Assembly: GCF_000012905.2 (NCBI RefSeq)
Contig: NC_007493.2
Location: 1,680,001 to 1,712,000, forward strand
Source: Cereibacter sphaeroides 2.4.1
GTDB taxonomy: Bacteria; Pseudomonadota; Alphaproteobacteria; Rhodobacterales; Rhodobacteraceae
Reading direction: 5' to 3'
Length of the DNA stretch: 32,000 nt
Positions within the stretch are counted from its first letter, which is position 1. Each line of letters begins with the position of its first letter. The position numbers and the translations under genes are program-made. This document shows, piece by piece, positions 5,864 through 26,259 of the stretch. Below the pieces are notes generated by a model. It was not told the DNA's origin and ran no database searches. It saw only the letters and a list, made by a program, of their open reading frames with translations.

Positions 5864-5866
5864 TTT

Positions 5867-8188: not shown

Positions 8189-8229
8189 TATTGAAATCCT
8201 CGCGAAAAAATTACTCCATTATGTATGAC

Positions 8230-8260
8230 CAAACAAAAAGCCCCGGATCTACTCCGAGGC
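8230..8260 (-). terminator. Weak terminator-like hairpin overlapping the chaperone stop codon
   Basis: The minus strand reads gcctcgga-gtaga-tccggggc (one mismatch) followed by tttttgttt. It may attenuate transcription ahead of the tape measure gene. Confidence 0.35.
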
Positions 8261-8925: not shown

Positions 8926-9051
8926 TCTTATTCTCCAAGATGTGTTTTTCGTTATTCTCTAGCAGACGATCCACGCTTGCGGATTCAATCTTTAGTCTCT
9001 CAATGTCAGGATGCTTTTCGACCTGACATTCAAGCTCATCGTTATTTATGT

Positions 9052-9537: not shown

Positions 9538-9649
9538 TTTGGTTTCTCCGTTATCTTATTGTTATAAAATATTTAGAAAAACCGAGATTTCCGAATGTGA
9601 TATTTAAGCAACAAATCAGGCCATTTGAGAAATAAAATGCAATTTCGTG

Positions 9650-9677
9650 AAATAAAAAACCCGACCTAAGCCGGGTT
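9650..9677 (-). terminator. Rho-independent terminator after the major tail gene
   Basis: The minus strand reads aacccg-gcttaggt-cgggtt followed by ttttttattt. Confidence 0.6.
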
Positions 9678-9702
9678 CTCTTCGTTATTGATGTTGTCGA
9701 GA

Positions 9703-10122
9703 TTACGGGCCAACCACCAAGGCGTTAATGCTGAAGGTAGCTTCGGCTTCCATCACATCGCCCACAGGGATGTTTCTGGAATATCCCTGCATGAAGCCTG
9801 AATAAGTCGAAACAACTGGACCATCTTCGCCCTTGAGCGTGACGCGAACTTTGACAGTCTCGCCGGAGTCCTGAAGTTCAAGCAAAAGGTCATCAGTTGC
9901 GCTGCCCGGAACATAGTGCATTGCAGCGGTCATGTCTGAAAATTCGCCTAGACCGGGAATGTATTCTTTCTTTCCACTCGGACTTTTCTGATGAGTTACT
10001 TCGATTTTATCGCGCGTAAATTCAGGCAACGTGATATCCGTAACGTAAGCCAATTCGGTCCAAGTCGGAGTAGCGCCGCGACCGATTTCGACCTTAGCAT
10101 CAATTCCAATTGCAATAGTCAT
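9703..10122 (-). CDS. Major tail (tube) protein
   Basis: 139 aa, in the position between the tail completion genes and the chaperones. It is followed by its own terminator, which fits a highly expressed gene. Confidence 0.75.
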   Translation of the reverse strand: MTIAIGIDAKVEIGRGATPTWTELAYVTDITLPEFTRDKIEVTHQKSPSGKKEYIPGLGEFSDMTAAMHYVPGSATDDLLLELQDSGETVKVRVTLKGEDGPVVSTYSGFMQGYSRNIPVGDVMEAEATFSINALVVGP

Positions 10123-10185
10123 TTAAATCCATCCTTCTAAGTTGATACCTTTATGCGGTATGTAGAGGATGGGATTTCGGACCCA

Positions 10186-10554
10186 TTAAGAATGGAAAAC
10201 TCGAAAGTCGATTGAATAACGAAGCACGATATCAGCCGGATTGGAAGTGTCTTCGCCCGATCTAACCTTATCCAGAAGAATTACCTTGATAGGATCATCG
10301 CCGGATTGATCGTTGTAACCGTCCAGAACCATGACCGCATTCTTAATAGTCAAGAGATCGGCCATATCTTCGGCCCAAATATCAACTTGAATCATCGATT
10401 GCCGCAATGGCGTTCTACCTTCCATCGTATGATCCCCTAATTCGGTGATAAGGGATAGCCTGATGTATGGACGCGGTGTATTTGCGGGAGCCCGAATCCA
10501 ATGGACTTCGATGCCGGATGCGTCTGTAATGAGTTGTCGAAGTTGTCTTTCCAT
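10186..10554 (-). CDS. Tail completion/terminator protein (DUF3168-like position)
   Basis: 122 aa. The call rests on synteny in an HK97-like connector set. Confidence 0.55.
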   Translation of the reverse strand: MERQLRQLITDASGIEVHWIRAPANTPRPYIRLSLITELGDHTMEGRTPLRQSMIQVDIWAEDMADLLTIKNAVMVLDGYNDQSGDDPIKVILLDKVRSGEDTSNPADIVLRYSIDFRVFHS

Positions 10555-10559
10555 TGGTC

Positions 10560-11024
10560 TTATCCTTTCGCGGCCTTGGCTCTGGCCCGATCTTGTCGTT
10601 TAATGGCCTTTTGAATTCTTGCGGCCATTTCGTCTTTCAGGATGTTAAGCACATTCTCTTTTTCAGTTTGCCACGCGGGGCGAAGATAGGGTTGAGGGGA
10701 AGTCTCCTCAGTTCCAAACTCTAGCAAATGCCCCTTGGGGGAACCTGCCCCGGCATACATCACAAACGAATGCTTGCCCTCTTTTCGCTCAAGCCTCTTC
10801 TGCGTCTTGTTGAGTTTATCCGTTACGATAATAGAATCGCGAAGATCCCCTTCATCAACCGGGGCGGCAGACTGTGCAGCATCAGCTACCGGCTGCATTG
10901 CTTTCTTCATGGAAGTCTTGATAAGCCGCTTTTGAGTAGCCAACTTTTCGAGGGACATGAGGTTCTTTTCGAGTTCCCGAAACGACTTCTTATCGATCTC
11001 CATACCGGACTTGTTCTTCGCCAT
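10560..11024 (-). CDS. HK97 gp10-family head-tail joining protein
   Basis: 154 aa. It has the characteristic LLEFGTEETSPQPYLRPAW motif region. Its start abuts the stop of the upstream gene. Confidence 0.7.
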   Translation of the reverse strand: MAKNKSGMEIDKKSFRELEKNLMSLEKLATQKRLIKTSMKKAMQPVADAAQSAAPVDEGDLRDSIIVTDKLNKTQKRLERKEGKHSFVMYAGAGSPKGHLLEFGTEETSPQPYLRPAWQTEKENVLNILKDEMAARIQKAIKRQDRARAKAAKG

Positions 11025-11342
11025 TTACTTCCGCGCCCCACAAGTAATTTCCATCCATTGCCGGTCATCGGAGATTTTGACGTTCTCAATATCAAGATCT
11101 CGACCATCGTAGCGGATGCGATATTCGTTATTCAGAGACAGAGATTTTGAGTGCCGAATTACAAACCGCATGGAGATTTGCCGTTGAGCGATTGCAGCCT
11201 GAATACGCTCCCCATCAGAGATATAAGAGACCTTTGCCCATACCGATTTCAAAGGCGCATACGTCTCTTTCTTCGATAATCCATTGTCAATCACTTGCCT
11301 CGACAAGATCGTAATCCGCTTATCCAATAGTCCCGTATGCAT
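11025..11342 (-). CDS. Head closure / head-tail adaptor protein (SPP1 gp16-like)
   Basis: 105 aa. The pattern LDKRITI...VWAKVSYISDGERIQA...RFVIRHS...RIRYDGRDLDIENV is typical of the Phage_H_T_join family. Confidence 0.8.
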   Translation of the reverse strand: MHTGLLDKRITILSRQVIDNGLSKKETYAPLKSVWAKVSYISDGERIQAAIAQRQISMRFVIRHSKSLSLNNEYRIRYDGRDLDIENVKISDDRQWMEITCGARK

Positions 11343-11343
11343 T

Positions 11344-11622
11344 TCAGATTGTCCAATTCGTTCTGAGATTGGCGATTAGCATTCCAAGGCCATAGGGGAC
11401 TTGATTGGTTCCACGATCCGATAAAACTTCCCTGTTTGTATACCAATGGAGTGCAAGGATCATAATCGCCAAATCGTATTCAGGCGGGGCATTCTCATCA
11501 TTTGGAACGCCAGTAATTTTAGAGACGTAATTGATAGCGGCATCTAGAAGAAGCTGGATATACGAGTCCTCGAAGTCATCGTCTATCCGCGCATGAAACT
11601 TGAATTTTTCTAAATCGACCAT
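11344..11622 (-). CDS. gp6-like head-tail connector protein
   Basis: I place the start at the ATG at 11622 (MVDLEKFKFHARIDDDFEDSYIQLLL...), which has AGGA 8 nt upstream. The track start at 11685 would run through the capsid-gene terminator. Confidence 0.75.
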   Translation of the reverse strand: MVDLEKFKFHARIDDDFEDSYIQLLLDAAINYVSKITGVPNDENAPPEYDLAIMILALHWYTNREVLSDRGTNQVPYGLGMLIANLRTNWTI

Positions 11623-11651
11623 TGCGCAATTCCTTATAATCTTTCCGGTAT

Positions 11652-11684
11652 TTAGAAAAAGAAAAAGCCCGCCGAAGCGGGCCA
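11652..11684 (-). terminator. Strong rho-independent terminator after the major capsid gene
   Basis: The minus strand reads gcccgc-ttcg-gcgggc followed by tttttctttttct. Confidence 0.8.
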
Positions 11685-11708
11685 TTTTCCTTATGTTAGT
11701 CGCCGAGA

Positions 11709-12818
11709 TTAGGCGATAACGAGCTTCGCGTAAGCGTCACCGTTAAGCACAACAGAACCGTAACGAAGATTGCCTTCAACGAAGATCACGTTCGATTGCT
11801 TATACGGGTTGATCTGGACGGTTACACCTTCGGCGCGAACCGCAGTCAGGAAGGCGCGCTTGTAGTTACCGAACACAACCGGCGTCTCTTCCGGGAGGTA
11901 ATCGTCAACATGCACAGGACGACCGTTGATCATCGTAACGCCCTCTTTGATTTCGAGAACGAATTGCGAGTTAGCCTTGGCTTTCGAAAGAGCCGCAGCA
12001 GTCGTGCCAGCCATCAGGTAAGCGCCGTTGTTGCGATCAACCGTCTTCACTTTGTAAGCAAGATCGATGATCAGTTCCGGCGTAACCGAAGCGCCGCTCA
12101 GTTCGATGCCAGCGGTAAGGATGCCTTGCGGGTCGTCATTTAGGCCAGTGCCGTTGATAAACCCATCGGCCATGTCGGCAGCGAAGTCTTCCGCAAACTG
12201 ATCAGCGATGAACGAGATCACGTCCGTTTGAAGGTCCATAGCGGAATGCTTGGTAACGGCGACGTTCGAACCCACATCGGTCCAGATCGGCTTTTTAGAA
12301 ACGAGCGAAGTAGTGTTTTCGCCGCGAACCGTGGTTTCCCCACCGCGAGTAACAGCCGAACCACCCGAAACCATGATGCCAAATTCCGAAGTGCCGGTAA
12401 CGACATACTTAGCAAGACCAGCAAGAGCCGAATAACCCCGAGCAGCAGCGATAACTTCATCCGAAACAGTGCGCGGAATGACGTTCGCTAGGCCAGTGGT
12501 GGCAAGAGCCTTCTGTTCGAACGCTTGTTTTGCTTCGAAGCTTTCCGGGTTAGCAAGCCAGTTGCGGAACGCGGACTTGCATTCATCGGCAGCTTCGGCA
12601 GCTTTACCCGACACAGGACGCGCGGCGGCGGTTTCCAGAGCGTTCAGGCGAGCTTCAAGAGCCGACTTGGCCGACAGAGACGCCGCAAGTTCGGCTTCCA
12701 TGCGAGCCATTTTTCCTTCAAACAGAGCGTCGGCAGATTTAACGCCTTCGACTTCCGAACGGATAGCTTGAATCAACTGGTTCGAAGCTTCAATGGCATT
12801 TTTAAGTTCAATAGTCAT
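11709..12818 (-). CDS. Major capsid protein, HK97 fold
   Basis: 369 aa. It has an N-terminal coiled-coil delta-like region and directly follows the prohead protease gene. Confidence 0.92.
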   Translation of the reverse strand: MTIELKNAIEASNQLIQAIRSEVEGVKSADALFEGKMARMEAELAASLSAKSALEARLNALETAAARPVSGKAAEAADECKSAFRNWLANPESFEAKQAFEQKALATTGLANVIPRTVSDEVIAAARGYSALAGLAKYVVTGTSEFGIMVSGGSAVTRGGETTVRGENTTSLVSKKPIWTDVGSNVAVTKHSAMDLQTDVISFIADQFAEDFAADMADGFINGTGLNDDPQGILTAGIELSGASVTPELIIDLAYKVKTVDRNNGAYLMAGTTAAALSKAKANSQFVLEIKEGVTMINGRPVHVDDYLPEETPVVFGNYKRAFLTAVRAEGVTVQINPYKQSNVIFVEGNLRYGSVVLNGDAYAKLVIA

Positions 12819-12890
12819 GTTTCTTTCCTTTTTGCAAAATGGAATGGTTTCATTCGTTTTGATGCATTATGTAGGACGTTAAAATCAGGC

Positions 12891-13415
12891 TTATTTCGCA
12901 GTAAGCAGTTCAATCCGCTTAAGCATTAGCGAAAGCAATTCGCGTTCCTCATCGAATTCTGTTTTGACCGCAGTGATAGTGGCGAGTTCGTTTGCAGGAA
13001 ACGTGACAAGCGAGACTTCAAAAAGATCAACTTCTTTAAGCAGTCGGTCGCCGCTATTCGAATACTCGTAATCAAGGGTCCGATAACCAATAGAGAAGCT
13101 ATCGATTGCTCCCATCATTGCTAATTCGCGAATCTCCTTTCCTTTTTCGGTATTAGCAAAGCGGCCTTGGATGAATAGACCTTTATCATCTTCAATCATT
13201 TCATCCCAAACGCCAATAACTTCGCGGGGGTCATGCTGCCAAAGCATTTTGACTCTGCGGCCAGAAGCGAGCGATTTAGTGAAAGCCCCCGCAACGACAA
13301 CATCCCCGACCCTATCGCGATTGCCGAAGATGGAAGCGTAACCCGATACGGTCATATCCCCATCATCTTCAGCTTTGATTTCGAATTTAAAGTGTTTGAA
13401 TTCCATATCGCTCAT
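12891..13415 (-). CDS. HK97-family prohead maturation protease
   Basis: 174 aa with GYASIFGNRDRVGDVVVAGAF...MLWQHD motifs. It overlaps the portal stop by 4 nt. Confidence 0.9.
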   Translation of the reverse strand: MSDMEFKHFKFEIKAEDDGDMTVSGYASIFGNRDRVGDVVVAGAFTKSLASGRRVKMLWQHDPREVIGVWDEMIEDDKGLFIQGRFANTEKGKEIRELAMMGAIDSFSIGYRTLDYEYSNSGDRLLKEVDLFEVSLVTFPANELATITAVKTEFDEERELLSLMLKRIELLTAK

Positions 13416-14638
13416 TTGCTGCTTTCCTCTTTCTGAATAGCGGAGTTTTCATACCCGCCTTTGAGCGGAGTTCTGGCCCATTCATCCGCAATAGGATCAA
13501 GGCCCAATTCATAACGGCATTCGTTGACCGACATGATTGCAGGACTTCCACCAACGCCCGTCACTGATGCGAAGAAATCTTTTAGGGCAGAATGGTCCCC
13601 GCGAAGTAATTCGTGCTCATCAAAATCAAACAACAGATTTGGTTCGGCTTGGAGCAGTGACGCTGCTAATGCTTGTTCAAAACGAGCTACCCAAGGCATG
13701 AGGGTATTGCGGACATGCGCCCGTTGGATCTCGGGAGTGATAGTCCCGGACGCCATCAGATAAGCCGGATGCACCCGGAAGATGCGAGCTATCTCTTCGA
13801 CCTGATACTTGCGGCTTTCGATAAGTTGGCTATCAACCGCGTTCTGTTGGATCGGTTTGAAGTCGGTCGAATATCCAGATGAAATCAGGATACCGCCTTC
13901 CCCATTCGATGAGAATCGGTCCTTCCAAAGTGCGATGATTTTGGCACGGGTATCTTCATCCAGAGCAACGCCGTCTTCTGGATCACCGATGCTCAAGACA
14001 CCTGAAGGTCTTCCACCATTCGAAGCCGTCTGAAGAGTCTGGCCTTCAAGGGCGTTCGCGATACCGACAGCCTTTCTGGCGGTCTCAATAGCGGAGATAG
14101 ACGAATACCCGTCAAGCGACAAACCACGGAAGAATAGACAATCCTTAGCTGCGAATACGCGGCTGGAACCATCGGTAAACCTTACCCGGAAATTGTATGA
14201 TCCATTAGTGAGGATTTCCATTTCCCAAATACCGCTAGGGATAGGCAAGAGTTCGCGGACTTCTCCACCGACAACGGTTTTGAGTGCCAATGCGCCTTTT
14301 CCGAGCACGGCATTTGAAATCATCATTTCAACAAATTCAAATCGGGTCTGATAGGCATTTGGCTTATTAATCAGCTTTGACGCCCAATGATCTTTCCGAA
14401 TTGTTCGCTTTGACAGCCCGTCTACTTCTTTTGTCTCGATAATATTGATAGGCATGGAAGCTACACCTTCCGCGATTGTTCGGACTGCGCACATAACAGC
14501 CGGGTTCTGCATCGCAGTTGTATTGCTTAGTGCCGGGGCAATAGAAGACGATCCGCCCCACCAGCCGAACGCCTCAGAGATCCTACTAATAACGGTCGGC
14601 TGATTGCTGCCTGACTCTCGTTTGCCAAATCCGAACAT
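13412..14638 (-). CDS. Portal protein (HK97 family)
   Basis: 408 aa, located between TerL and the protease. Confidence 0.9.
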   Translation of the reverse strand: MFGFGKRESGSNQPTVISRISEAFGWWGGSSSIAPALSNTTAMQNPAVMCAVRTIAEGVASMPINIIETKEVDGLSKRTIRKDHWASKLINKPNAYQTRFEFVEMMISNAVLGKGALALKTVVGGEVRELLPIPSGIWEMEILTNGSYNFRVRFTDGSSRVFAAKDCLFFRGLSLDGYSSISAIETARKAVGIANALEGQTLQTASNGGRPSGVLSIGDPEDGVALDEDTRAKIIALWKDRFSSNGEGGILISSGYSTDFKPIQQNAVDSQLIESRKYQVEEIARIFRVHPAYLMASGTITPEIQRAHVRNTLMPWVARFEQALAASLLQAEPNLLFDFDEHELLRGDHSALKDFFASVTGVGGSPAIMSVNECRYELGLDPIADEWARTPLKGGYENSAIQKEESSK

Positions 14639-14677
14639 GCTTATCCTCGCAAGTATAATACTTTGCGATATTTAGGA

Positions 14678-16264
14678 TTAAGCAAATAGAGCTTTTCGCT
14701 TGGGCTTTGGCTTGTTATCTGGATCAGCAAGCATTCCGGCGAGCATCGCTAACGTAACAGCGCCGTCAATTCGTCTTGTCGAAGTATGCTTGATGAATTT
14801 GCGGTTGTTTGAAGTGTCCGAAACAACTTTCACGTTTGCCATGCACATATTCATGACGGGGTTGTTCCCATGGCGAATTTTGCCATCCAGAATTAAACGC
14901 TCCAACTCGTTAATTCCGATGCCCATAGAAACGAAGCCCTGCCCATAAGAAACCATGTGCTCGTCAATCCATCGCTCATCAAAACCACAATCAATCATGT
15001 CGCGCTTGAAGTATTTTATTTTGTAACGGTCAAAGGCTACCTTCTGGACATTGGCGTTATCCGCAATCTCCTTAAGCTTGGCAGCGACATCCTTATATTG
15101 GATGGTTCTTCCTTGGCTTAAATGGATTAGTCCACCCTTGGCCCAAATGTCATAAGGAACCTTATCACTTCTCGATTTATCCTCTATTCCCTCATCGGGA
15201 AGCCAAAAGAATGGATGAACGTGAAGCAAACCATTCTCGTCTTTATGTGCTAAAGTAAGAGAAGTGAGATCTCGGGTTTCAGATAGATCAAGGCCAAGCC
15301 AAACATCCTTTCCATGCCATTCTTCGGGATTATCCTTGCCTTCATCCCAAACATCTTTTGAAATGAATGGAGCGTTGACTTCGATCCTCTGGTTGAGGGT
15401 GTAGTTGCGGAAATCCGCAGCACGGGCAGGCATCCGTGCGGCCTCGGCCTGCATTTGCTTGAGTTCCTTGCGGTTCACAAAGGAATTCCATGCAGGATGC
15501 GAGACAGCTAGGGCTTCTTCTGAGAACGGATCGATATTCATCGGACACGAATAGAGCTTAAGAACCTTGGTCGGATCTGCCCCGGTTGCGGCGTCATCGA
15601 TCAACTGACTAAGAAGGTCATTGTCAGTCGGAGCCTGCGTAGAGATCACGAGGGTAAGCGGGTTTGCCTGAGCCGCAGTGGCAAGCTCCAAGGCTTCGTA
15701 GAGCGGATCTACTGGCCCTCTCACCTGCCCTAGCTCATCGTGGATCACGAGGCACGGACTCAGCCCTTGAGCCGTTCCAGCATCCTTGGAGAGAGCCCTA
15801 TACTCTGTCCCTAGCTCGGGCACCTTCAGCCGCTTACTAGTCTCCACAATCCGAACAAAACGCGATATACGCGGACTCATCCTGATCATCTTGACTGCCA
15901 GTTTGAACAACTCCGCAGCTTGATCCCTGCTTCGGGCTGCACTGTATAGTTGCGAGTTGGGCAAGGCTTCTCGACCTACCAGATGCAACAGCATCAGAGC
16001 GGCACAGAGCGTTGTCTTCGCAGCCTTACGGGGCATCGAAATAATAGCCCGACGAGTTCCAGCCGGATTGTCATAGATCGAACGAATGATATCCTTCTGA
16101 AAGTCCACAAGCCTGAATGGCTTACCAACGTCCTTACCTTCTGGAATAAACAGGTTCGACTCAATCCACTTGATATTCTTTTCTGCCCTAGACAGTTTCG
16201 GCTTAGGCGGAATGACGGGTTGAGCGGACGAGAGAACGGGTAAAGATTGATCACTCATCGTCAT
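14678..16264 (-). CDS. Terminase large subunit
   Basis: 528 aa. It has a Walker A-like PRKAAKTT and a Walker B-like CLVIHDELGQ, plus a C-terminal nuclease-type region. It overlaps the TerS stop. Confidence 0.92.
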   Translation of the reverse strand: MTMSDQSLPVLSSAQPVIPPKPKLSRAEKNIKWIESNLFIPEGKDVGKPFRLVDFQKDIIRSIYDNPAGTRRAIISMPRKAAKTTLCAALMLLHLVGREALPNSQLYSAARSRDQAAELFKLAVKMIRMSPRISRFVRIVETSKRLKVPELGTEYRALSKDAGTAQGLSPCLVIHDELGQVRGPVDPLYEALELATAAQANPLTLVISTQAPTDNDLLSQLIDDAATGADPTKVLKLYSCPMNIDPFSEEALAVSHPAWNSFVNRKELKQMQAEAARMPARAADFRNYTLNQRIEVNAPFISKDVWDEGKDNPEEWHGKDVWLGLDLSETRDLTSLTLAHKDENGLLHVHPFFWLPDEGIEDKSRSDKVPYDIWAKGGLIHLSQGRTIQYKDVAAKLKEIADNANVQKVAFDRYKIKYFKRDMIDCGFDERWIDEHMVSYGQGFVSMGIGINELERLILDGKIRHGNNPVMNMCMANVKVVSDTSNNRKFIKHTSTRRIDGAVTLAMLAGMLADPDNKPKPKRKALFA

Positions 16265-16637
16265 CTTCCCATGGCTTGAACGAGGAAGCCCTTGCCTCGG
16301 GAGACTCTTTCGATGATCTAAGTGATTGATTGGAAATCCGAAGCTTTGTTGCGAGGGAAGATACCGCCCTATTTTCGCGGTCCAGCATCGCCGTAAGCTT
16401 GTTCAACAGTTTCGAGAATTCGATAATATCGTCAATCTTGCGATTGTCTTTGGCTTCTCTAATGAGACCGGCAACGTAATCAGCTTGGACGACATGACGG
16501 CAGAAAGCCACGAGTGAATCCCGTTGCAGATCCGTAATCCATCCATCTTCCAGACTGTCTAAGATGCGGCACCAAACCTCCAATTCATCATCCGAAAAGT
16601 CATTTGGCGGAATGAGTGTCTTTTTGTTGTTTTCCAT
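16251..16637 (-). CDS. Terminase small subunit (P27-like)
   Basis: I take the start as the ATG at 16637 (MENNKKTLIPPNDFSDDELEVW...). The track start at 16691 is a TTG. Its position upstream of TerL and its helical character fit the P27 family. Confidence 0.7.
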   Translation of the reverse strand: MENNKKTLIPPNDFSDDELEVWCRILDSLEDGWITDLQRDSLVAFCRHVVQADYVAGLIREAKDNRKIDDIIEFSKLLNKLTAMLDRENRAVSSLATKLRISNQSLRSSKESPEARASSFKPWEDDDE

Positions 16638-16894
16638 TATTGTTGATTCCCAAATAGCAATCTCCCGGTATGTAGGGAATTTGGGAGTCAAGCCGCTTAT
16701 CGGGATCTATGGCAAAAAAAGGAAAAAACTGCCCGTTTAAAACTCGTCACTACCATGCGCGGGAACCCTGTGAAAGGGAAAATCGAATCGACCTCCCCCC
16801 GGTCAAAAATGATTCGAAAATGTCAATTGAAATCGGATTTTTCTTTGCCTTCCGATCAAATAAATCTGCGAGAGAATCGTTTGGCAGATTGCGG

Positions 16895-16929
16895 AAAATG
16901 AAAAGACCGGACCTTAATTGATCCGGTCT
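16895..16929 (-). terminator. Rho-independent terminator upstream of the packaging/late operon
   Basis: The minus strand reads agaccgga-tcaattaagg-tccggtct followed by tttcatttt, directly after the stop at 16955. Confidence 0.65.
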
Positions 16930-16954
16930 TGTGCAAATGCTGTTGATGATCAGA

Positions 16955-17266
16955 TCACTTTTCGGCTTTTAGTTCCTCAAGCAATTTCTCATGCTTCTCC
17001 TTTGCCTTCTCGATACCCCGAACCGCATCCGGGATTGAAAAAAGAATATCACTCCTTACCTCGCGGATGAGACTTTCAAGCTTATCCTCACAATCAAGAA
17101 CTTCCCGTTGAGCTTTGCGAATTTCTTCCAGCTTCAATGCACGACTGCATTTCGCATTCAGAGTCTCATATGCTTGGTCGGTGTTCGCAGCATGAAGTTC
17201 AACTTCATCCAAGATATCAGTCAGGGCTTTTGCAATAGCTTCCTTGTTTCGGATTTCCATTTTCAT
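16955..17266 (-). CDS. Hypothetical coiled-coil protein
   Basis: 103 aa. The sequence is Glu/Lys-rich and helical. No family was recognised. Confidence 0.5.
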   Translation of the reverse strand: MKMEIRNKEAIAKALTDILDEVELHAANTDQAYETLNAKCSRALKLEEIRKAQREVLDCEDKLESLIREVRSDILFSIPDAVRGIEKAKEKHEKLLEELKAEK

Positions 17267-17319
17267 TTTCTCCTTTATGTGTGTGTTGTAATGTTATTTA
17301 GTGTTTCGTTGATTTCCGG

Positions 17320-17826
17320 TCATCGCAGTTGGGCAAGTCTCAAATTGTATTTCGCAGTAGCCTGACAGTAGGCTTCATGGGCCTCTTCGGGAGTATCGAA
17401 TATTCCGAGACGCTTCTTCTTCCCATGCCTTGCGACGATTGCAGCAAAGCGATTGCTAACCTTCTCGACTCCCTGTCCATATGGGTTGACATTCATCAGA
17501 CGGTTCAAACTGTTGTCTGAATGTGTAACTGCCCTGAGATTTTCGATCCGGTTATTAAGTCTGTCGCCGTCTTTATGATCGATAACGAGGTTAGAAATAT
17601 CGACGTCTGGATTGTGCATCTTGAAGATGATGCGATGGGCATAGAATAGCGAACCCATCATATGAACCTGTCGATATCCGAGACTCCTGTTAATCGACCC
17701 CGCTGGACGATCCGCACTCTTGCGACTATTATTGAGATTCTTCCAATATATTTGCCCATCTTCATCATAACGAAAAAGCGCATGTAATTTTTCGGATGAT
17801 GGGAGGTCTTTCGTTTTGAATGACAT
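17320..17826 (-). CDS. Second free-standing HNH homing endonuclease with an AP2-type domain, a paralogue of 9052..9537
   Basis: The HNH core is FYAHRIIFKMHNPDVDISNLVIDHKDGDRLNNRIENLRAVTHSDN. The AP2-like region is GVEKVSNRFAAIVARHGKKKRLGIFDTPEEAHEAY. The architecture matches 9052..9537. Confidence 0.85.
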   Translation of the reverse strand: MSFKTKDLPSSEKLHALFRYDEDGQIYWKNLNNSRKSADRPAGSINRSLGYRQVHMMGSLFYAHRIIFKMHNPDVDISNLVIDHKDGDRLNNRIENLRAVTHSDNSLNRLMNVNPYGQGVEKVSNRFAAIVARHGKKKRLGIFDTPEEAHEAYCQATAKYNLRLAQLR

Positions 17827-17844
17827 TGTGACTCCATGATGTAG

Positions 17845-17879
17845 AATGAAAATAGGCAGACCAATTGAATGATCTGCCT
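17845..17879 (-). terminator. Terminator-like hairpin between the HNH and HNH-AP2 genes
   Basis: The minus strand reads aggcaga-tcattcaattgg-tctgcct followed by attttcatt. Confidence 0.5.
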
Positions 17880-17907
17880 GAATTTGAAATTGAAATTTGG
17901 ATATGGA

Positions 17908-18294
17908 TTAGAGGCTGAATGACTTAGGCTTGAAGTATTCTCGATTACGCTCGGATATTACTTGTTTCCAATCCATTTCCGGGATTGGCCAGCCGGTATC
18001 ATAATCAATGATAGGATCAAATCCGATTAGCCCGTTACTCTCACGTTGCGTTTTCGATCTATGGCAGTCCTTACAAAGCATCCAGAGATTGCTTAGATCA
18101 TCCGTTCCACCACTGTTGACGTTTTGAAGATGGTCGCAGTCTGAGGCCAAGACGATCCTGCCTGTAAGCATGAAACAGCGGACGCATATTCCTTGATCTC
18201 GATTGCGGACGATATCCCGGTTCTTCCGGTAAGCCGCAGTCACCTTGCGCTTTGAACTACTCCAATTGGATTGCTTGCGGTTTGTCATCGCCAT
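17908..18294 (-). CDS. Terminase-associated HNH endonuclease (HK97 gp74-like role)
   Basis: 128 aa containing CVRC...CDHLQNVNSGGTDDLSNLWMLCKDCHRSKT. It lies upstream of TerS/TerL, as in cos-type HK97-like phages. Confidence 0.85.
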   Translation of the reverse strand: MAMTNRKQSNWSSSKRKVTAAYRKNRDIVRNRDQGICVRCFMLTGRIVLASDCDHLQNVNSGGTDDLSNLWMLCKDCHRSKTQRESNGLIGFDPIIDYDTGWPIPEMDWKQVISERNREYFKPKSFSL

Positions 18295-18649
18295 TAGTCA
18301 TAATCGGAAGATGTGTTGCGGTGATCTTGTTCGCGGAAATCGGTCCATCAATGATATTTGGTCCGCGCGGGTTGATGTGGTCGTTGATGCGCGCCAGCAC
18401 GTCGGCCAGATAGGCCTGTGGGTCGAGGCCGCTCAGTTTCGCGCTCTCAGCCTCATCGTCTAGGAGAGTGTTCAACGCTTCCCCTACTGCATCGGCTGGT
18501 GTTGGATGAATGGTTGAATACCGAACGCCATTGGCCATCGCTATCCAACCAGACTCACAATAACAAATCAGGAATTCGCCTTTTGTAATCTCGCGAACCT
18601 CTCTCATGAGATCCGCAAGATGGTGTTGATCGATCTTATCGGGTTGCAT
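18257..18649 (-). CDS. Hypothetical protein carrying an IS66-transposase C-terminal-like segment
   Basis: 130 aa. Residues ~69-96 (AKLSGLDPQAYLADVLARINDHINPRG) resemble the conserved C-terminus of IS66-family transposases. That segment coincides with a local GC-rich patch. Confidence 0.5.
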   Translation of the reverse strand: MQPDKIDQHHLADLMREVREITKGEFLICYCESGWIAMANGVRYSTIHPTPADAVGEALNTLLDDEAESAKLSGLDPQAYLADVLARINDHINPRGPNIIDGPISANKITATHLPIMTNGDDKPQAIQLE

Positions 18650-19097
18650 CGTAGACTTGATCGCTGATCTCGTTTGAGACGCCGCGAACCCTCATGGATG
18701 CAGAACGGATGCGTAAAGCTTCGAAAATCTTGTTACGCAAGGCATCATCGGCATTTTGCTGGAACGTGAGGATCTTCTTAATGGATGGGGTAGGATCGAA
18801 GTTCGGCAGGATACCCGCGATTTGAGCATTGGTAAGGATTCTAATTTCTTTTTGAAGGTTATCGATCTCGCTACGGATGAGTGATCGAATGACGATATCT
18901 TCGATCTTGCGCCATTCTCCATGGGCATAGATGAAAAAGGCTTTATGCATAGTGTCAAAGCGGATTGATCCTGCATGATCGGTCATGATGCGGTCGGCAA
19001 TGCCCTTAATCGAGACCGGGCAGTCGATGGCCTTTGAGACTTGGGCAGCGGTGTAATTCGTGCCGCATTTCGCATTAATTTTTTGGTGATCTAGCAT
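18636..19097 (-). CDS. Hypothetical protein
   Basis: 153 aa, first gene of the minus-strand block after the 19.1-19.6 kb gap. No family was recognised with confidence. Confidence 0.55.
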   Translation of the reverse strand: MLDHQKINAKCGTNYTAAQVSKAIDCPVSIKGIADRIMTDHAGSIRFDTMHKAFFIYAHGEWRKIEDIVIRSLIRSEIDNLQKEIRILTNAQIAGILPNFDPTPSIKKILTFQQNADDALRNKIFEALRIRSASMRVRGVSNEISDQVYDATR

Positions 19098-20552: not shown

Positions 20553-20635
20553 GGCTGCTTCCGGCTGCGGTTGATGGTCCCTTCTGCTTCGCAAGGGCGA
20601 GGGCCAGCGGTCAAGCGTCAAGGGGCCTGTGAGGC

Positions 20636-20820
20636 ACTATGCGGCGGCGGCGGGGCACGGAACTGGCGTGGGGGGACGAGCGGAACGAGGGGGGCAAAGG
20701 ATTGGCGGAATGAGGGACGAGGGAACGAAGCGCAAGCGAAGTGACTGAGGATCGAATGCAGACGTTGACCGAATGAAGAAACGGAGCGGAACGCGGAGTG
20801 ACTGAATGAAAGGCAACGAT
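20636..20820 (+). other. Strand-asymmetric purine tract
   Basis: A hand count gives 133 of 180 nt as purines on the plus strand at 20641-20820, and T is rare. GGAACG, GAATG and AGTGACTGA recur, with about 11 GGA triplets and several G4-6 runs. Confidence 0.8.
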
Positions 20821-20830
20821 GTATCAATCA

Positions 20831-21431
20831 TGAGATCGGAACATGAGTCTGCTCTCGAATAGAGGTTGAGATCAGGATTTAAGACAAAGTAAACATTTTT
20901 GGTATTCTTAAGTGATTGATTTTATTGAATAAATCAAGGGTGTCATATGGATTTGTTTTTCTTAAGAAAATCGTTTAAGTGATTGATTTTATTGATTTAT
21001 TAAGAAATGGATGAATCGAGATTTGATGTTCATGGTTCTTGAATGGGTATTCCATCAATGAACATGACGAGAAGTGCATTTTGGCGTAAGTGAGCGAAGC
21101 GAACGGAACGCCACCTTTAATCCACATAGAGGTTTTGAGATCAGGAAAGGAGTCTTCTTTCAGATAAAGGTTTGAGATCAGGAAAGGAGTCTTCTTTCAC
21201 ATAGAGGTTTTGAGATCGGATAAACCTTTAATCCACATAGAGGTTTTGAGATCGGATAAACTGCATCGAATAAGGGTCACCATAAGCAATCTGGCCGCAG
21301 GCCGCGCGAAGCGCCAATGGAATCGTTTATCCAATAGAGATTTGGACTCATACAGATCGGATAAATGATCTATGCTCAGATAGAGATTTTGAGATATCAA
21401 ATTTCATCAGATAAAGGTATTTTGGATCTTC
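20831..21431 (+). repeat. Iteron-like repeat family with core ATAGAGGTTTTGAGATC
   Basis: Copies start near 20858, 21123, 21161, 21198, 21234, 21332, 21377 and 21408. Four tandem units at 21123-21263 have a 36-38 bp period. In those units the inter-core segments are pairwise duplicated: aggaaaggagtcttcttt twice and ggataaac twice. Confidence 0.85.
20908..20995 (+). repeat. Two perfect 21-bp direct repeats in an AT-rich segment
   Basis: ttaagtgattgattttattga occurs at 20908-20928 and 20975-20995. The first copy also forms the inverted repeat ttgattt-N8-aaatcaa. Confidence 0.9.
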
Positions 21432-21504
21432 AAACTTCCTTTCTCTAACTCAGATCTCATCTGGACCTTATAGTTAAGATTCTGATTATAGCTCTATTTC
21501 TATA

Positions 21505-21525
21505 GGGGGACGAAACCCCCATTTT
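21505..21525 (+). terminator. Short GC hairpin plus T-run (terminator-like, plus strand)
   Basis: ggggg-acgaaa-ccccc is followed by attttc. The stem is only 5 bp, so this is weak. Confidence 0.3.
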
Positions 21526-21526
21526 C

Positions 21527-21623
21527 GTGGTGACGATCCCGGTGACGATGTGGTGACGATCCCGGTGACGATGTGGTGACGAAACCCAACCATAAGTTGT
21601 ATGGTGACGATGTGGTGACGAAA
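21527..21623 (+). repeat. Array of seven GGTGACGA octamers
   Basis: Octamers start at 21529, 21541, 21552, 21564, 21575, 21603 and 21614. The spacings are 12, 11, 12, 11, 28 and 11 bp. The 23-bp unit gtggtgacgatcccggtgacgat is exactly duplicated. Confidence 0.9.
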
Positions 21624-22097
21624 CCTCAATCCTCCTCTCCTCTATCCGAGCAACCATACAGCCTCGATTTTCATCCTTATCCATCAACGCCTTCGATGCC
21701 ATTTACGAAATTCCGAAATCCATACTGTCGAAAAGTAGAAGTGCGAGCGAAGAAACACTTCATCTGAGCATCGTTCCATTGCGACTATCCCACTCGAATC
21801 CTTTACTTACGCATTCACATTCGTTATGTGCGGCATCGGCCTTACGTCGGTATGAATTCGATGTTGCTATTTTGCAACGCCAATCCGAGAAATGAAAAAA
21901 TTCATGATCGGACGCCCGATTTTGGGCAGTCGGATTCCTATATACTTCGTCAAAGGTTGAGAGACTTTCGATTGTTATTTTTGCTTTGTGAAGGGATGGG
22001 GAAGTCATGAGCCTCATCCCGACACTACCGAAAAGCAATAACAATCCCCTCACAAATTGGAGACAGCAAAAATGATTTAATACGAAGAGGACTCCCT

Positions 22098-23216
22098 ATG
22101 TGCAACAGCAAATTCCCATTATTAGATACGTTGCTTCGCTGCCGTTACTGCGGCATTCAGCTTGAGGCGACGACAAACGGTCGGCAGCGCAAGTTTTGCT
22201 GCGATAGCCACCGCAAGATGTTCAATAAACGCCAATCAACATCGTCGCTAGCAAAGCTTTATAAGGCTCTTGCAACCGAATTTTTCTCCATCAACAACGC
22301 CCATGATCGGCAAACTCAAATAGAAGAATGGGGCATCAAATACGCTTACTGGTGCAATGGCGAAATGCCTTCATTCTTCAAAACGAAGGAAGCTCTTCTA
22401 AACTCATTCATTCCACGAGATAAAGTTTGGAACGAGGAAGGTAAGAACATCAATGTTAGGCTTGTCGCCCATCTTCGCGAGAAGGTTCCGAATAAACAGA
22501 TCTACGACCGTCTAGCAGTTGTTCGCGCGTTCGGTCTTGAACCGTCTGCATCGCTTCTGGCAGAGCAAGACGCCACTGAGACCCCTGCCCCATCCAAGCC
22601 CGTAGAACGGTCACAGAAGCCCTCTGATCCTGCCAGCCTCATCCATGCTCCGAAGCCCGCAAAGCCCGTCCAGCCCGCTCCTGTAGAGGCTGACGAGGAT
22701 GCAGAGCTTCTAGCTGCTTTCTCGGAATTTTTCGGCGATGACTCTGACCGTAAGGAACCGGCTCCGGTAGCCTGCGAAGAAACTCGTCCTGCGCCGATCA
22801 AGATCAATCCGTCCTACGCCGCCTGTGTGAAGATGTCGTTCGACAAGATCGGAGACATTCGCGAGGATTTCTTGTTTCGCAAATTCGAGGAGTATGATTA
22901 TCCGCTGAAAGCCACTCTATCCGCAATGGTCGAAGAAGGATCAATCATTAAGACGAAGAAAGCCGAAGGAGTATTCTATCGTATCGCCAACAACGAAGCG
23001 AACGAGAAAGCCGATTTTTGGGCTGAATGCCTTCGTTATGCCAAAGGCGACATGACTAAGGCGAGGGCTTCTTTTAGAAACGTTTTCGATCTTTGGCCGT
23101 CAAAGGAAATTCAAGAAACTTCAGTGGATTTGTCCATTGAACCAAGTGTTGCGAACGTCAGGCGGATTGAAGAAGGGCGCAAGCGGTATTTTGACGAAAA
23201 GAAGAAGGCTGCGTAA
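22098..23216 (+). CDS. Zinc-ribbon (FCS/TRASH-like) protein with a Pro/acidic linker and a winged-helix-like C-terminal region; candidate DNA-binding regulator or initiator
   Basis: 372 aa, with AGAGGA 6 nt upstream of the ATG. The N-terminus has CRYC-x17-CCDSH. The linker is PAPSKPVERSQKPSDPASLIHAPKPAKPVQPAPVEADEDAE. The C-terminus has DYPLKATLSAMVEEGSIIKTKKAEGVFYRI. Confidence 0.75.
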   Translation: MCNSKFPLLDTLLRCRYCGIQLEATTNGRQRKFCCDSHRKMFNKRQSTSSLAKLYKALATEFFSINNAHDRQTQIEEWGIKYAYWCNGEMPSFFKTKEALLNSFIPRDKVWNEEGKNINVRLVAHLREKVPNKQIYDRLAVVRAFGLEPSASLLAEQDATETPAPSKPVERSQKPSDPASLIHAPKPAKPVQPAPVEADEDAELLAAFSEFFGDDSDRKEPAPVACEETRPAPIKINPSYAACVKMSFDKIGDIREDFLFRKFEEYDYPLKATLSAMVEEGSIIKTKKAEGVFYRIANNEANEKADFWAECLRYAKGDMTKARASFRNVFDLWPSKEIQETSVDLSIEPSVANVRRIEEGRKRYFDEKKKAA

Positions 23217-23217
23217 C

Positions 23218-23523
23218 ATGCAAATCAAAATCATCGGCCCATCGATGGGACCGACGTTACCGGAAGGCTCAGTTCACGACGTCAACTTAACCGATCAATT
23301 CGGGCTAGGTGATATAATCGTCTTCCCCGATCCGAAGGACAGTTCCCGCCTTCTAGTCAAACGACTTCTGCGGAGCGAAGATAAAGGGCTATTCGTCATT
23401 GGGGATAACGTGAGAAACAGCCGAGATAGTCGCCATTTTGGCTTGATCGATCCGGCATCAGTTATCGGGAAAATCGAAATTTGCCGGTTTCCAAAATTCG
23501 TTAATTCAACCTCAACCAAATAA
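23218..23523 (+). CDS. Anchorless S26 (signal peptidase I-like) serine peptidase, 101 aa
   Basis: The ATG is 1 nt after the upstream TAA. All S26 boxes are present: GPSMGPTL (Ser), GDIIVF, VKRL (Lys) and GDNVRNSRDSRHFG. There is no N-terminal hydrophobic anchor. Confidence 0.8.
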   Translation: MQIKIIGPSMGPTLPEGSVHDVNLTDQFGLGDIIVFPDPKDSSRLLVKRLLRSEDKGLFVIGDNVRNSRDSRHFGLIDPASVIGKIEICRFPKFVNSTSTK

Positions 23524-23586
23524 CACTTGCCAATCCGAAACAATGGAGCAATATATCCACTCATTAGAATCACACGGAGATTATCA

Positions 23587-23997
23587 ATGCTTAAATCAAT
23601 GACCCTCGCCATCTTCCTTGCCCTCGCCTCTACTTCGGCTCATGCGTTCCCGTTCCAATCTGAGACAATCGATTGTTCGAGCGAAGAAGCATTCAAGCAA
23701 TCTTTTGAGCGCATTGCCGAGAATGAGAGCAAAGTTGATACTACGGCAATCCTCTTCGGCACGATTCAAATGCTGTATGCGAACCTGCCGCCCGAACGTC
23801 GTGCCCGTCTATACGAAGGTGGAGGGCCAGTTGACAATCCGTTTCTAAATGTTGCTCAATCCCTCGAATATGCGTATGAGACCGATTTTCATCTGTCGCT
23901 TTCAGACGTGAAGGAATACGTCCGCGAGAATGGGCTTACCGAAATGGCTGCTCAGTGGATTGCCGAAAGGGAAGCCGAAGAAGCGAAGAAAGAGTGA
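23587..23997 (+). CDS. Secreted/periplasmic protein of unknown function with a Sec signal peptide
   Basis: I take the start at 23587 (MLKSMTLAIFLALASTSAHA|FPF), with GGAG 7 nt upstream. It has an A-X-A cleavage motif, and the mature part is helical and acidic. Confidence 0.7.
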   Translation: MLKSMTLAIFLALASTSAHAFPFQSETIDCSSEEAFKQSFERIAENESKVDTTAILFGTIQMLYANLPPERRARLYEGGGPVDNPFLNVAQSLEYAYETDFHLSLSDVKEYVRENGLTEMAAQWIAEREAEEAKKE

Positions 23998-24011: not shown

Positions 24012-24045
24012 CAAAGCCCCCGGCAATCGCTAGGGGCTTCTTTCA
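24012..24045. terminator. Bidirectional terminator between convergent genes
   Basis: aagcccc-cggcaatcgcta-ggggctt is flanked by an A-run upstream and a T-run downstream. Confidence 0.7.
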
Positions 24046-24060: not shown

Positions 24061-24456
24061 TCAGTCTTTGTTGATCAACAGGTCTTCCATGTTGCCCCCC
24101 GCTTCAAGGTGAGCCTCCACCCACTTCGGTTTTCGTCCGCGTCCCGACCAAGTTTCCGAAGGGTTCTCCGGGTGCCGGTATTTCGGCGCTACAGGCTCGC
24201 GTTCTCCATCCTTGGACTTGCGGTTGTAACTCCGTTTCCCCGTCCCTTCCGACTTCGGCAGCATATCGCCGAAGAGATCCACGAGGTTGAAGCCCGACGA
24301 CTCCACGAGTTCCTTGATCTTGTCCTTAGCAGCTTGCTTTTCGCGAGCTTCATTGGCCCTAAGAGCTTCTTCGACATTCGCCCTCAGTTTGAGCAAATCA
24401 CCGCGCGGAACGTCAACGAGGTCTTCAAGGGTCGGCAGTCCGGTAGTCTTAGCCAT
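24061..24456 (-). CDS. H-NS / HvrA-family nucleoid-associated protein
   Basis: I take the start as the ATG at 24456 (MAKTTGLPTLEDL...), with AGGA upstream. It has an N-terminal coiled coil. The C-terminus carries the signature KYRHPENPSETWSGRGRKPKWVEAHLEAG. Confidence 0.9.
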   Translation of the reverse strand: MAKTTGLPTLEDLVDVPRGDLLKLRANVEEALRANEAREKQAAKDKIKELVESSGFNLVDLFGDMLPKSEGTGKRSYNRKSKDGEREPVAPKYRHPENPSETWSGRGRKPKWVEAHLEAGGNMEDLLINKD

Positions 24457-24510
24457 GGAGAATTCCTTTCCAAATCGCTGAGTCGGATATTGTTTCATTC
24501 GTTCGGAATG

Positions 24511-26259
24511 TCAATCGCTTTCGTATTCGTAGGCCGATCCCTCAACTCGTCTCGTCTTTTCACCCGCATAAACACTCACTCGAATATCATCAGGATTACT
24601 AGGATTCGGGACTACCGTCTGCACCGCACCATTGCGGAAAGTTACGATGAAGTAAGGATCATCCTTCAACCGTGATCCCGCATTCATTGCCGCAATGATC
24701 TTTTCGGCATCAGGATCTCCCGAAGCGCGCACAAGATCAATCGCCGGATCATCTTTGCGGATTTCACCATTCGGATAGACGTCAATGCGCTCAATGATCG
24801 ATTTGATACGATCCGCAAGCCTAATACGATTTTCCCCGCATGGATTTTGGAACGTCGAAATCAGGGATGCTAGTTCCTCGTCGGTCACGTTATCCGACTT
24901 GATCTTCGAAAGAGCATCATTCGATTCCTCGATAGATCGAACAAGATCATCCTTCTCGGCTTTCAATTCCCGAATGCGCTCCATGAAGATTTCCGCAAGA
25001 TCGGGAGCACCTTCGATCTTGATCAGATAATCCCGAATTCTCTCATCTGCCTTTCTAACTTTCTCTTCATTGACCGTTATCCGATCCGCAATCGTCTTTG
25101 CTTCGGACTTGCGCTTTGCACCTTCCAGAAGTCCCCTCAAATCAACATCCCGAACAAATGTCAGGAAGGAGCGTTCGAAGGCAGCGTAAGGGAGAGGTTT
25201 GCAATCGCATCCCGGACCATTAAAGCGGTTGAAGCATGTCAGGTAACGATGCGGAGGATTGCCCTTTACCCGTGATCCTTTCGACCGATGGCGCATCTTT
25301 GATCCGCAATAGCCGCAGAAAGCAACATGGGTGAAGATGTTCGATTGACCCTCTCCCCTTCTTCCCCCGGCAAGCAACCGCCCTCTCAGCGATGCTTGAA
25401 CAATGTCGAAAAGCTCTTCCTCGATTACGGGAGGGAAATATCCCGGAATAGGATCACCAGCCGGTTGACGCTTTCCACTGACATACTGCCCCGGCTGAAA
25501 TTCCCCGAGGACTGCACGATTGCGAAGCGTCTTGGAGACGAAAGCTTCGGCCCACAAAGCGCCCCTTCCGAATGTCGGAACCTTGTCGCGATTCAGTTCT
25601 TTGGTGATGAGGTTCGCACCTTTACCCGATGCCGAAGCTTCGAAGATGCGTTGAACGATTTTGGCCCGTTCCTTATCGATCAGGTAAGACTTGCGATCAA
25701 CGGACAGCTTAAGCCATGCAGGGCATTGACTCGACATTTTGACGCCATGTTCGGCAGCAAGCTTCCGCTTCTGCGACCAGTTGGCGAGACCACGAGTCGA
25801 TTTGATCTTAGACTCGTCATTGGACCGGATCATTACTGAAATGGCGTAGTAAATGCTTCCAACCTGATCTGACGATCCATCGTAAACCTGCCCATCCGAC
25901 AGGGTAACGATCTTCACCCCGGTCTTGAGAATGCGAGCAAACAGGGAAAATGCATCAAGGATCTTGTCTCGACTCAAACGGTCAAGGCTTTCGATGAGAA
26001 GGAACGATCCTGCCTCAATCTCTCCCGCCTCACACTCGGCAACAAATCGTCCGAGAGCCCCGGTAGTCAGGTTGTCCGACTTGAAGGCAGAGACCCCGAG
26101 ATCGGCAAGCTTGTAGTCATCGATAAGGTCAAGATCATGTTCGGCGGCATACTTCGCGGAAGCTTCTGCCTGCCGTCTAAATGAGTCCCCTTTGATCTGG
26201 ATAGCCGAGGACATACGAATGTAGCTGTATGCCTTCGGTCGGCTTGCTGGATTGGTCAT
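24511..26259 (-). CDS. Large serine recombinase (phage integrase)
   Basis: 582 aa. The resolvase-type N-terminus is [12 protein letters not shown]...GDSFRRQ. It also has a recombinase domain, a zinc ribbon (FCGYCGSKM...[15 protein letters not shown]) and a long coiled coil. It is the last gene before the GC shift. Confidence 0.93.

Follow-up and report, generated by a model that had tools for sequence, protein, structure and literature searches.

An anchor-less SodX-branch peptidase, predicted to be intact, in a prophage-like element of Cereibacter sphaeroides 2.4.1, and its candidate substrates

What does a signal-peptidase-like enzyme cut when it has no membrane anchor and the substrate of its closest relatives is not encoded beside it? 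The question arises in a stretch of the Cereibacter sphaeroides 2.4.1 chromosome (contig NC_007493.2, positions 1,680,001 to 1,712,000; 32,000 nucleotides (nt), hereafter the window, whose numbering we use), where a prophage-like element carries three consecutive plus-strand genes, here genes 1, 2 and 3 (Table 1), the second of which encodes a mini S26 peptidase. This gene appears to be an intact, selected member of the SodX branch in a prophage without a nickel superoxide dismutase (Ni-SOD), with two candidate substrates at defined candidate sites, in a host that appears to be a genetically tractable model organism and a member of standard mock communities, for which public expression data probably exist. 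An initial annotation, made from the sequence of this stretch, had described the three genes as tightly spaced, and the open reading frame (ORF) coordinates agree: genes 1 and 2 are separated by 1 nt (TAA-C-ATG), which implies translational coupling, and genes 2 and 3 by 63 nt. Each gene is preceded by a plausible Shine–Dalgarno sequence, and a consensus scan found no terminator-like site on the plus strand between them. An inverted repeat between gene 3 and the convergent H-NS-like gene, uncalled by the scan because its loop exceeds 8 nt, is probably a bidirectional terminator closing the unit. The trio is one transcription unit within the non-structural arm of an AT-rich element of ~26 kb.

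Gene 2 scores 58 bits against Pfam Peptidase_S26 (PF10502; gathering score 22.9) and 54.3 bits against the NCBIfam signal peptidase I model TIGR02227 (cut-off 47), and a profile search of the PDB returned signal peptidase I at E 2e-19. In an alignment with 15 relatives S9, K48, G62-D63-N64, S68, D70 and S71 are invariant, with S9 and K48 as the catalytic residues and GDNVRNSRDSRHFG as box E. These matches and residues support the earlier statement that the short product keeps all signal peptidase I boxes, and the missing anchor noted with it agrees with a maximum Kyte–Doolittle hydropathy over 19 residues of 0.83, versus 2.2 in the anchored mini S26 proteins P0010 and P0011; an in-frame upstream extension is hydrophilic and adds no hydrophobic segment. 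Gene 2 resembles LepB and SipS in its family, its catalytic boxes, its A-x-A specificity and its passing of the TIGR02227 cut-off, but it has no transmembrane anchor and only 12 residues between the KR and GDN boxes, a segment of 50–150 residues in those enzymes. For both reasons it cannot be positioned on the outer side of the membrane, which is where Sec substrates are cut, and the lack of an anchor alone sets it apart from LepB-type signal peptidases. We infer that the peptidase is cytoplasmic.

One public annotation starts gene 2 at M10 (23245; 92 amino acids), which removes the catalytic Ser9. The 101-residue form is present on 114 other contigs and in the majority of other annotations, and we favour this start because of its Shine–Dalgarno sequence, those contigs and the conservation of IIGPSM in a distantly related locus (L003). 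Compared with a second allele of the same element (L002), gene 2 has a ratio of nonsynonymous to synonymous substitution rates (dN/dS) of ~0.28, and two box E codons, Ser68 (AGC to TCA) and Arg69 (CGA to AGG), differ by synonymous multi-base changes. Gene 2 is thus under purifying selection, and such selection on the catalytic box means that the peptidase does something. Taken together, its sequence features identify gene 2 as a predicted catalytically intact Ser/Lys peptidase of the S26 SodX branch that lacks an anchor. Two other identities were considered and rejected: a conjugative TraF-type peptidase (16.2 bits on TIGR02771, cut-off 100.25, with no conjugation genes in the window) and an S24 repressor of the LexA/CI type (18.9 bits on Pfam S24, under the 23.3 cut-off, and a free-standing 101-residue ORF). 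PHROG families of CI-like repressors align with the peptidase core of gene 2 only (E 3e-6), and none of nine proteins searched against the PADLOC defence models gave a match at E <= 0.01.

SodX removes an N-terminal leader, after [A/V]-x-Ala, from a single protein encoded next door, and to our knowledge this maturation of Ni-SOD is the sole established job of anchor-less mini S26 peptidases. An exhaustive HMMER search with gene 2 against 1.84 billion representative proteins (clusters at 50% identity) returned 1,596 proteins at E <= 1e-3, none of them under 1e-30. Nearly all of the top 150 matches are mini S26 proteins of 85–180 amino acids with 35–48% identity; many relatives are anchor-less and others have one N-terminal hydrophobic helix. 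Because these clusters number ~1,600, anchor-less mini S26 proteins are a large and already known kind, and gene 2 is no new enzyme type. A word-indexed search with gene 2 found its own protein only. The closest full-length match among the representatives, P0005 (48% identity), is encoded by the sodX gene of locus L038, which a 97-nt gap separates from a downstream Ni-SOD gene. A scan of GTDB representative genomes gave 80 loci, 49 with a near-full-length match, and 40 of these 49 carry, no more than 4 kb away, a Ni-SOD gene recognised by its HC[DE]xPCG hook. Of the nine others, three lie at contig ends. This bears out the SodX-like affinity proposed in the initial annotation, which was also right that no Ni-SOD-like substrate is present: the hook occurs in no frame of the window or of loci L001–L004, and gene 3 is unlike the Ni-SOD profile.

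On the SodX model TIGR02754 gene 2 reaches 55.0 bits, below the curated equivalog cut-off of 63.25, a shortfall that is not decisive because two of seven Ni-SOD-adjacent SodX proteins (44–82 bits) also score below it, at 62.2 and 44.4 bits. By descent gene 2 belongs to the SodX branch, with the mini architecture and SodX proteins (36–48% identity) as its nearest relatives, yet it stays under the family cut-off and has no adjacent Ni-SOD gene. The SodX–SodN pair is the closest known system: both peptidases consist of an S26 core of ~90–110 residues that lacks domain II, and both have the Ser/Lys dyad and the GDNxxxSxDSRxFG box; SodX also often lacks an anchor and acts in the cytoplasm, and in both cases the leader of the neighbouring protein ends in [A/V]-x-Ala, which for the SodX substrate is most often A-H-A. 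They differ in that no Ni-SOD is found here, gene 3 has neither a Ni hook nor similarity to SodN, its leader is hydrophobic and Sec-like, and a peptidase below the curated cut-off resides in a proteobacterial prophage. Phage-borne S26 peptidases in IMG/VR are of a different, anchored type: a degenerate box E pattern matched 32 contigs there, all of which, except two contig-truncated fragments, encode proteins of 124–205 residues with a hydrophobic N-terminus. With tblastn, gene 2 found nothing in PLSDB and a single partial match of 35 residues in INPHARED.

The protein of gene 3 begins with a basic n-region and a hydrophobic core at residues 4–14 (Kyte–Doolittle mean over 11 residues 2.23), followed by A-H-A at 18–20. 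Residues 17–20 read SAHA and the leader ends ASTSAHA/FPF, in agreement with the signal peptidase I site proposed from the sequence at the outset. Its AlphaFold model is confident (predicted local distance difference test, pLDDT, of 80), with an all-alpha mature part; no Foldseek match in the PDB or BFVD had an E-value below 0.5, and no profile matched. A disguised Ni-SOD, which would be of similar size and helical, was rejected at an hhalign probability of 0.4%. Gene 3 exists as two alleles of 136 and 131 amino acids (the window versus L002, 11490–11885, and L037), which share 52–55% amino-acid identity. Between the window and L002, nucleotide identity is 98.2% in gene 1, 95.1% in the peptidase gene, 98.4% in the 63-nt spacer and 97.1% in the first 69 nt of gene 3 (leader plus FPF), and then breaks sharply to 56.5% in the remainder of gene 3, with flanking genes at 94–98%. 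From this pattern, the mature part looks to have been swapped behind a conserved leader, through cassette replacement or diversifying selection.

We tentatively put first the possibility that gene 2, by analogy with SodX, processes a partner from its own operon, the first choice being the leader of gene 3. The peptidase would remove the 20-residue leader at S-A-H-A/F-P-F (A20/F21); this step would compete with Sec export and LepB and would leave the all-alpha protein, released or retained, on the cytoplasmic side. A cut at V-R-A144/F145 of gene 1 would be the second choice. All of these substrate assignments are predicted. The order S26–63 nt–gene 3 is paralleled by sodX–97 nt–sodN in L038. 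Of 50 Ni-SOD leaders, all have Ala at P1, 34 have Ala and 16 have Val at P3, and 21 have His at P2, with A-H-A as the commonest P3–P1 triplet and TAHA as the commonest four-residue motif; the SAHA of gene 3 fits this pattern, and its leader was conserved through the cassette swap. In addition, L003 has lost gene 3 and carries a decayed peptidase. Operons such as tapA-sipW-tasA of Bacillus subtilis and the streptococcal pilus islands with SipA/LepA likewise place an S26 gene beside the leader-bearing protein that it serves, but those enzymes are membrane-anchored and act outside the membrane on matrix or pilus proteins, and in SipA/LepA the catalytic residues are missing. If a Sec-type leader were indeed cleaved in the cytoplasm, this would be a new way of controlling protein localisation.

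Several points weigh against this reading. The gene 3 leader looks like an ordinary Sec-type leader that host LepB would cleave, so a dedicated enzyme is unneeded, and cutting in the cytoplasm would prevent export. It also differs from the leaders of Ni-SOD, which are not hydrophobic and have Pro at P6 and P7 in 27 and 36 of the 50; the gene 3 leader is hydrophobic and has no such Pro. Because A-x-A is generic, the motif match has little weight, and because one deletion explains both, the joint loss in L003 is not independent evidence. The peptidase is moreover coupled to gene 1 and has stayed adjacent to it over divergence to 56%, which points to gene 1 rather than gene 3, and the comparison set consists of three loci. 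The topological puzzle raised by the initial annotation, an anchor-less peptidase beside a Sec-type leader, is real, and host LepB would be enough for the gene 3 leader.

How far the trio travels together bears directly on whether its members cooperate. Among 5.8 billion proteins gene 1 has only two relatives, the 98% allele in L002 and a 56% homologue in L003; searches of IMG/VR, GTDB representative genomes and JGI metagenomes by pattern and by tblastn, based on the gene 1 alignment, were negative, and so was tblastn with gene 1 against PLSDB and INPHARED. When the three proteins were used in word-indexed searches, the only matches were the same prophage, the 56% gene 1 relative and a 55% gene 3 allele. 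The exact window proteins occur on 82–129 contigs, and L002 and L037 have all three genes at the guaA position seen in the window. L003 belongs to another element, one that encodes a small resolvase, type III restriction-modification enzymes and a DUF3800 protein. Its gene 1 is separated by 28 nt from what is left of a peptidase gene, which has two frameshifts and in which GDN has become GAN and SxDSR is lost, and a PrtN-family (PyocinActivator) gene stands in the place of gene 3. The 28-nt spacer carries its own Shine–Dalgarno sequence, which led us to reject the idea that a programmed frameshift joins gene 1 and the peptidase into one product.

The trio is limited to one prophage-like lineage of ~26 kb with two alleles and is no conserved module; the conserved portable unit comprises the repeats upstream of gene 1 together with gene 1 itself (plus the peptidase). 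The proposal that the three genes co-occur as a functional module does not survive this comparison, since we found no co-occurrence outside the lineage, and the sole distant relative, with its decayed peptidase and no gene 3, does not support it. We found no evidence that this composition forms a system and, in line with the initial annotation, no described phage counterpart in INPHARED, IMG/VR or the literature, in which there was also nothing relevant on a prophage-borne or cytoplasmic S26 system.

It is accordingly possible, and we hold this tentatively too, that no functional link exists and that three independent accessory or early genes share one promoter. Gene 3 would then be an exported protein that LepB of the host cleaves, for instance a factor for periplasmic exclusion or host interaction that is subject to diversifying selection, while the peptidase would act on some other host or phage protein or have a non-proteolytic role. 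Besides the lack of conservation and the PrtN-like replacement in L003, this is consistent with the swap of the gene 3 mature region between prophages that are otherwise 95–98% identical, with its standard Sec-type leader, and with the orphan or near-orphan status of the three proteins, none of which matches a defence or phage family in a way that points to a joint system. On the other hand, the spacing is tight and two of the genes are coupled, the nearest relatives of the peptidase are overwhelmingly single-substrate enzymes encoded beside their substrate, and the selection on its catalytic box shows activity of some kind. If the genes are unrelated, the finding shrinks to three orphan accessory genes.

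A different partner for the peptidase is suggested by gene 1. The N-terminus of this protein has a zinc-ribbon-like Cys-x2-Cys...Cys-Cys-x2-His arrangement within a conserved helical domain (1–155), residues 156–235 form a disordered Pro/Ala/acidic linker, and a winged-helix segment follows at 238–296 (pLDDT 63–80), the only usable part of an AlphaFold model that is poor overall (pLDDT 48). Foldseek matches to the model are weak (all E >= 0.14) and uniformly winged-helix (ArsR, MarR, BlaI, MecI, AspA). Of the zinc-ribbon/winged-helix architecture first assigned to gene 1, the winged helix is thus backed by the model and these weak matches, and the zinc ribbon is sub-threshold only (Pfam E 0.04–0.1), with negligible similarity to that of the integrase. 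We found no homology to Rep, repressor or partition families in Pfam, NCBIfam or the PDB. The dN/dS of gene 1 against L002 is ~0.28, and identity to the L003 homologue falls from 75% in the N-domain to 44% in the linker and 28% in the winged helix, the most divergent part.

We consider it rather unlikely that the peptidase acts as a switch on this candidate regulator, cutting gene 1 at V142-R143-A144/F145 and parting the N-domain from the linker and winged helix. Such an arrangement would be the counterpart, on two polypeptides, of LexA/CI/PrtR or of BlaI-BlaR1 logic. Coupling would ensure equal amounts of both proteins, a signal such as RecA* would trigger the cut, and the result would be a prophage switch of a new kind. 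The 1-nt gap fits this reading, both proteins are predicted to be cytoplasmic, and the synteny of their genes is kept in L003 despite divergence to 56%. Gene 1 has four [A/V]-x-A sites, and VRA/F, at the boundary of N-domain and linker, is the only one conserved in L003; the higher conservation of the linker than of the winged helix suggests functional linear motifs there. The operon lies beside the integrase and divergent from the structural genes, in a cI-like position, in an element with no recognisable repressor, and box B of gene 2 (IIGPSMGPTLPEGS) is nearly the same as in S24 repressors of the phage CI type. Yet L003 retains an intact gene 1 with a dead peptidase, which makes the peptidase dispensable for gene 1 and leaves a purely negative, inducing role compatible; the closest relatives of gene 2 take off N-terminal leaders and not internal linkers; gene 2 scores as S26 and not as S24; there is no evidence of RecA dependence; and VRA falls within a helix predicted at low confidence.

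Unlikely, by our estimate, is the more specific version in which gene 1 and gene 2 are a split analogue of CI, LexA or PrtR, the iteron- or operator-binding regulator forming a 1:1 complex with a latent S26 peptidase and being cut in trans at VRA/F, which would turn on the element. The S24 proteins LexA, lambda CI, PrtR and UmuD, of the same clan (SF) as gene 2, share with gene 2 a Ser/Lys dyad, the fold and a near-identical box B, SMxPTLPEGS, and the locus resembles theirs in having a DNA-binding regulator nearby and an integrase-proximal, cI-like prophage position. They differ in that gene 2 is a separate polypeptide with an S26-specific box E, a subthreshold S24 score and no identified autocleavage site, and in that gene 1 has a zinc ribbon and winged helix in place of a lambda-type helix-turn-helix (HTH). 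If this reading were true, gene 2 would be the first S26-type enzyme to serve as a genetic switch, and the pair would be the first LexA-like switch with protease and DNA-binding parts on separate chains. That gene 2 is instead a genuine SodX, an auxiliary gene maturing a Ni-SOD encoded elsewhere in the host, is highly improbable: TIGR02754 is its best family match and its score lies inside the range of Ni-SOD-adjacent SodX proteins, but it misses the curated cut-off, no Ni hook occurs in the 32-kb window or the related loci, recent capture from a host is unlikely because the nearest SodX is only 48% identical and the nearest relatives come from unrelated phyla (Acidimicrobiia, Thermoplasmata, Chloroflexota), and R. 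sphaeroides presumably relies on an iron-dependent superoxide dismutase (Fe-SOD).

Some wider relatives of gene 2 are of interest in their own right. P0014, P0019 and P0060 are anchor-less mini S26 proteins fused, unexpectedly, to a C-terminal multi-transmembrane domain with paired cysteines that is VKOR-like. A Saccharibacteria metagenome-assembled genome (L076, 2727–3577) encodes a 100-residue mini S26 protein with GEH replacing GDN and no Ni-SOD nearby, back-to-back with an ORF bearing the Cu/Zn-SOD-like motif HAVHIHEKGDC. Loci L133–L139 of IMG/VR (~7536–8270) encode canonical HTH plus S24 repressors of the CI type, whose box GESMEPTLPEGS is almost identical to GPSMGPTLPEGS of gene 2; the C-terminal half of gene 2 is clearly S26.

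Table 1. Features of the peptidase locus and its surroundings, in window coordinates.
Feature	Positions	Strand	Description
Repeat-rich non-coding region	20622-22097		Direct-repeat families; ~1.5 kb upstream of the operon
Five ATAGAGRTTTKGA copies	21126-21392	+	0.19 window matches expected by chance
Seven phased GGTGACGAW copies	21529-21622	+	Spacings 12, 11, 12, 11, 28, 11 nt
Gene 1	22098-23216	+	372 aa; orphan protein
Gene 2	23218-23523	+	101 aa; predicted anchor-less mini S26 (SodX-type) Ser/Lys peptidase
Gene 3	23587-23997	+	136 aa; orphan all-alpha protein with N-terminal leader
Gene 3 leader, residues 1-20, MLKSMTLAIFLALASTSAHA	23587-23646	+	Predicted cut after A20
GC-rich inverted repeat AAGCCCC...GGGGCTT	24014-24039		T-rich run after it; read directly from the sequence
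H-NS-family gene	24061-24498	-	Pfam Histone_HNS, E 3.5e-19
Large serine recombinase (integrase) gene	24511-26259	-	Right end of element; abuts host guaA

The homology between the window and L003 (tblastx) is confined to 20950–23310, a span comprising the repeat-rich DNA, gene 1 and the beginning of gene 2, and the non-coding region upstream of gene 1 is common to both from ~20950 onward. Seven of the eight GGTGACGAW matches in the window fall inside the phased array, where chance would give 0.42 in the whole window, and at the same position L003 has the same architecture built on another repeat core, with CGTCGATCC copies. Two of the ATAGAGRTTTKGA copies lie within 30-nt units that hold the DnaA-box-like TTAATCCACA, and a trough of 24% GC at 20900–20999 holds a duplicated AT-rich repeat of 21 nt. 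No Rfam family and no tRNA was found in the window. The region may serve as an origin, as an operator array or as a centromere, and on sequence grounds gene 1 appears to form a portable module with the 1.1–1.5 kb of phased repeats upstream of it.

Gene 1 would bind these repeats through its winged helix and would serve the element as initiator or master regulator. This role is assigned from position and repeats, and the lack of family homology and the poor model weigh against it. Iteron-initiator modules (lambda O/ori, P1 and F Rep) are the nearest comparison: here too the gene of a large, putatively DNA-binding protein stands beside direct repeats phased at 11–12 bp, with an AT-rich tract and DnaA-box-like sequences, and the whole moves as a unit between unrelated elements, but gene 1 has no similarity to Rep proteins in sequence or confident structure, and the arrays may just as well be operators or a centromere.

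Within the same region a highly conserved block (21460–21527; 9441–9509 in L003) ends in the hairpin GGGGGACGAAACCCCC followed by ATTTTCG, directly before the phased repeats, and a second conserved, GC-rich block lies at ~21270–21330. These blocks, which match no Rfam family, may encode a small RNA followed by its terminator or form a structured part of an origin; they were not found in metagenome or viral contigs. Further upstream, 20640–20810 is a G-rich, GGAACG-rich stretch downstream of the DUF2971 gene, where L002 has tandem GGAAAATGACGAAAC-like repeats instead (8500–8720) and no called DUF2971 gene; this is a variable tandem-repeat region.

The window contains almost all of the inserted element (~1–26260), whose GC content of ~0.48 gives way at ~26000 to the ~0.68 of the host chromosome. 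The element is only ~26 kb long, because in a second copy the host Pirin gene directly follows a small ORF beyond the tail fibre gene. Its minus strand encodes, from 444 to 19097, a tail fibre, a tape measure protein, tail and head proteins, the portal, TerL, TerS and two HNH proteins; the DUF2971 gene, the 1.5-kb non-coding stretch, the trio, the H-NS-family gene and the serine recombinase follow. We recognised no repressor, Cro, replication, anti-termination or lysis gene in the element, all of which the phage with the closest TerL (53% identity) carries between int and terS. The integrase was useless for positional comparison because its IMG/VR relatives are only 25–28% identical. The element is unusual in having full head, packaging and tail genes without these others, it also carries an H-NS gene and a portable module of repeats and DNA-binding protein, and it may be defective, resemble a gene transfer agent (GTA) or otherwise form unusual particles. 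In DNA of 48% GC, the H-NS gene might be a self-encoded silencer of AT-rich DNA that replaces a conventional repressor.

Two smaller observations concern the element and its copies. In L123 (GCA_009797605.1, 2248–9050) the integrase is split into ORFs of 268 and 106 amino acids, DUF2971 is uncalled and gene 3 is called at 118 amino acids, which suggests decay or sequence errors in some copies. On the minus strand at 18257–18649, between orphan early genes and the HNH genes, a 130-residue ORF carries an IS66 C-terminal element motif (Pfam PF13817, E 5e-9), with no transposase present.

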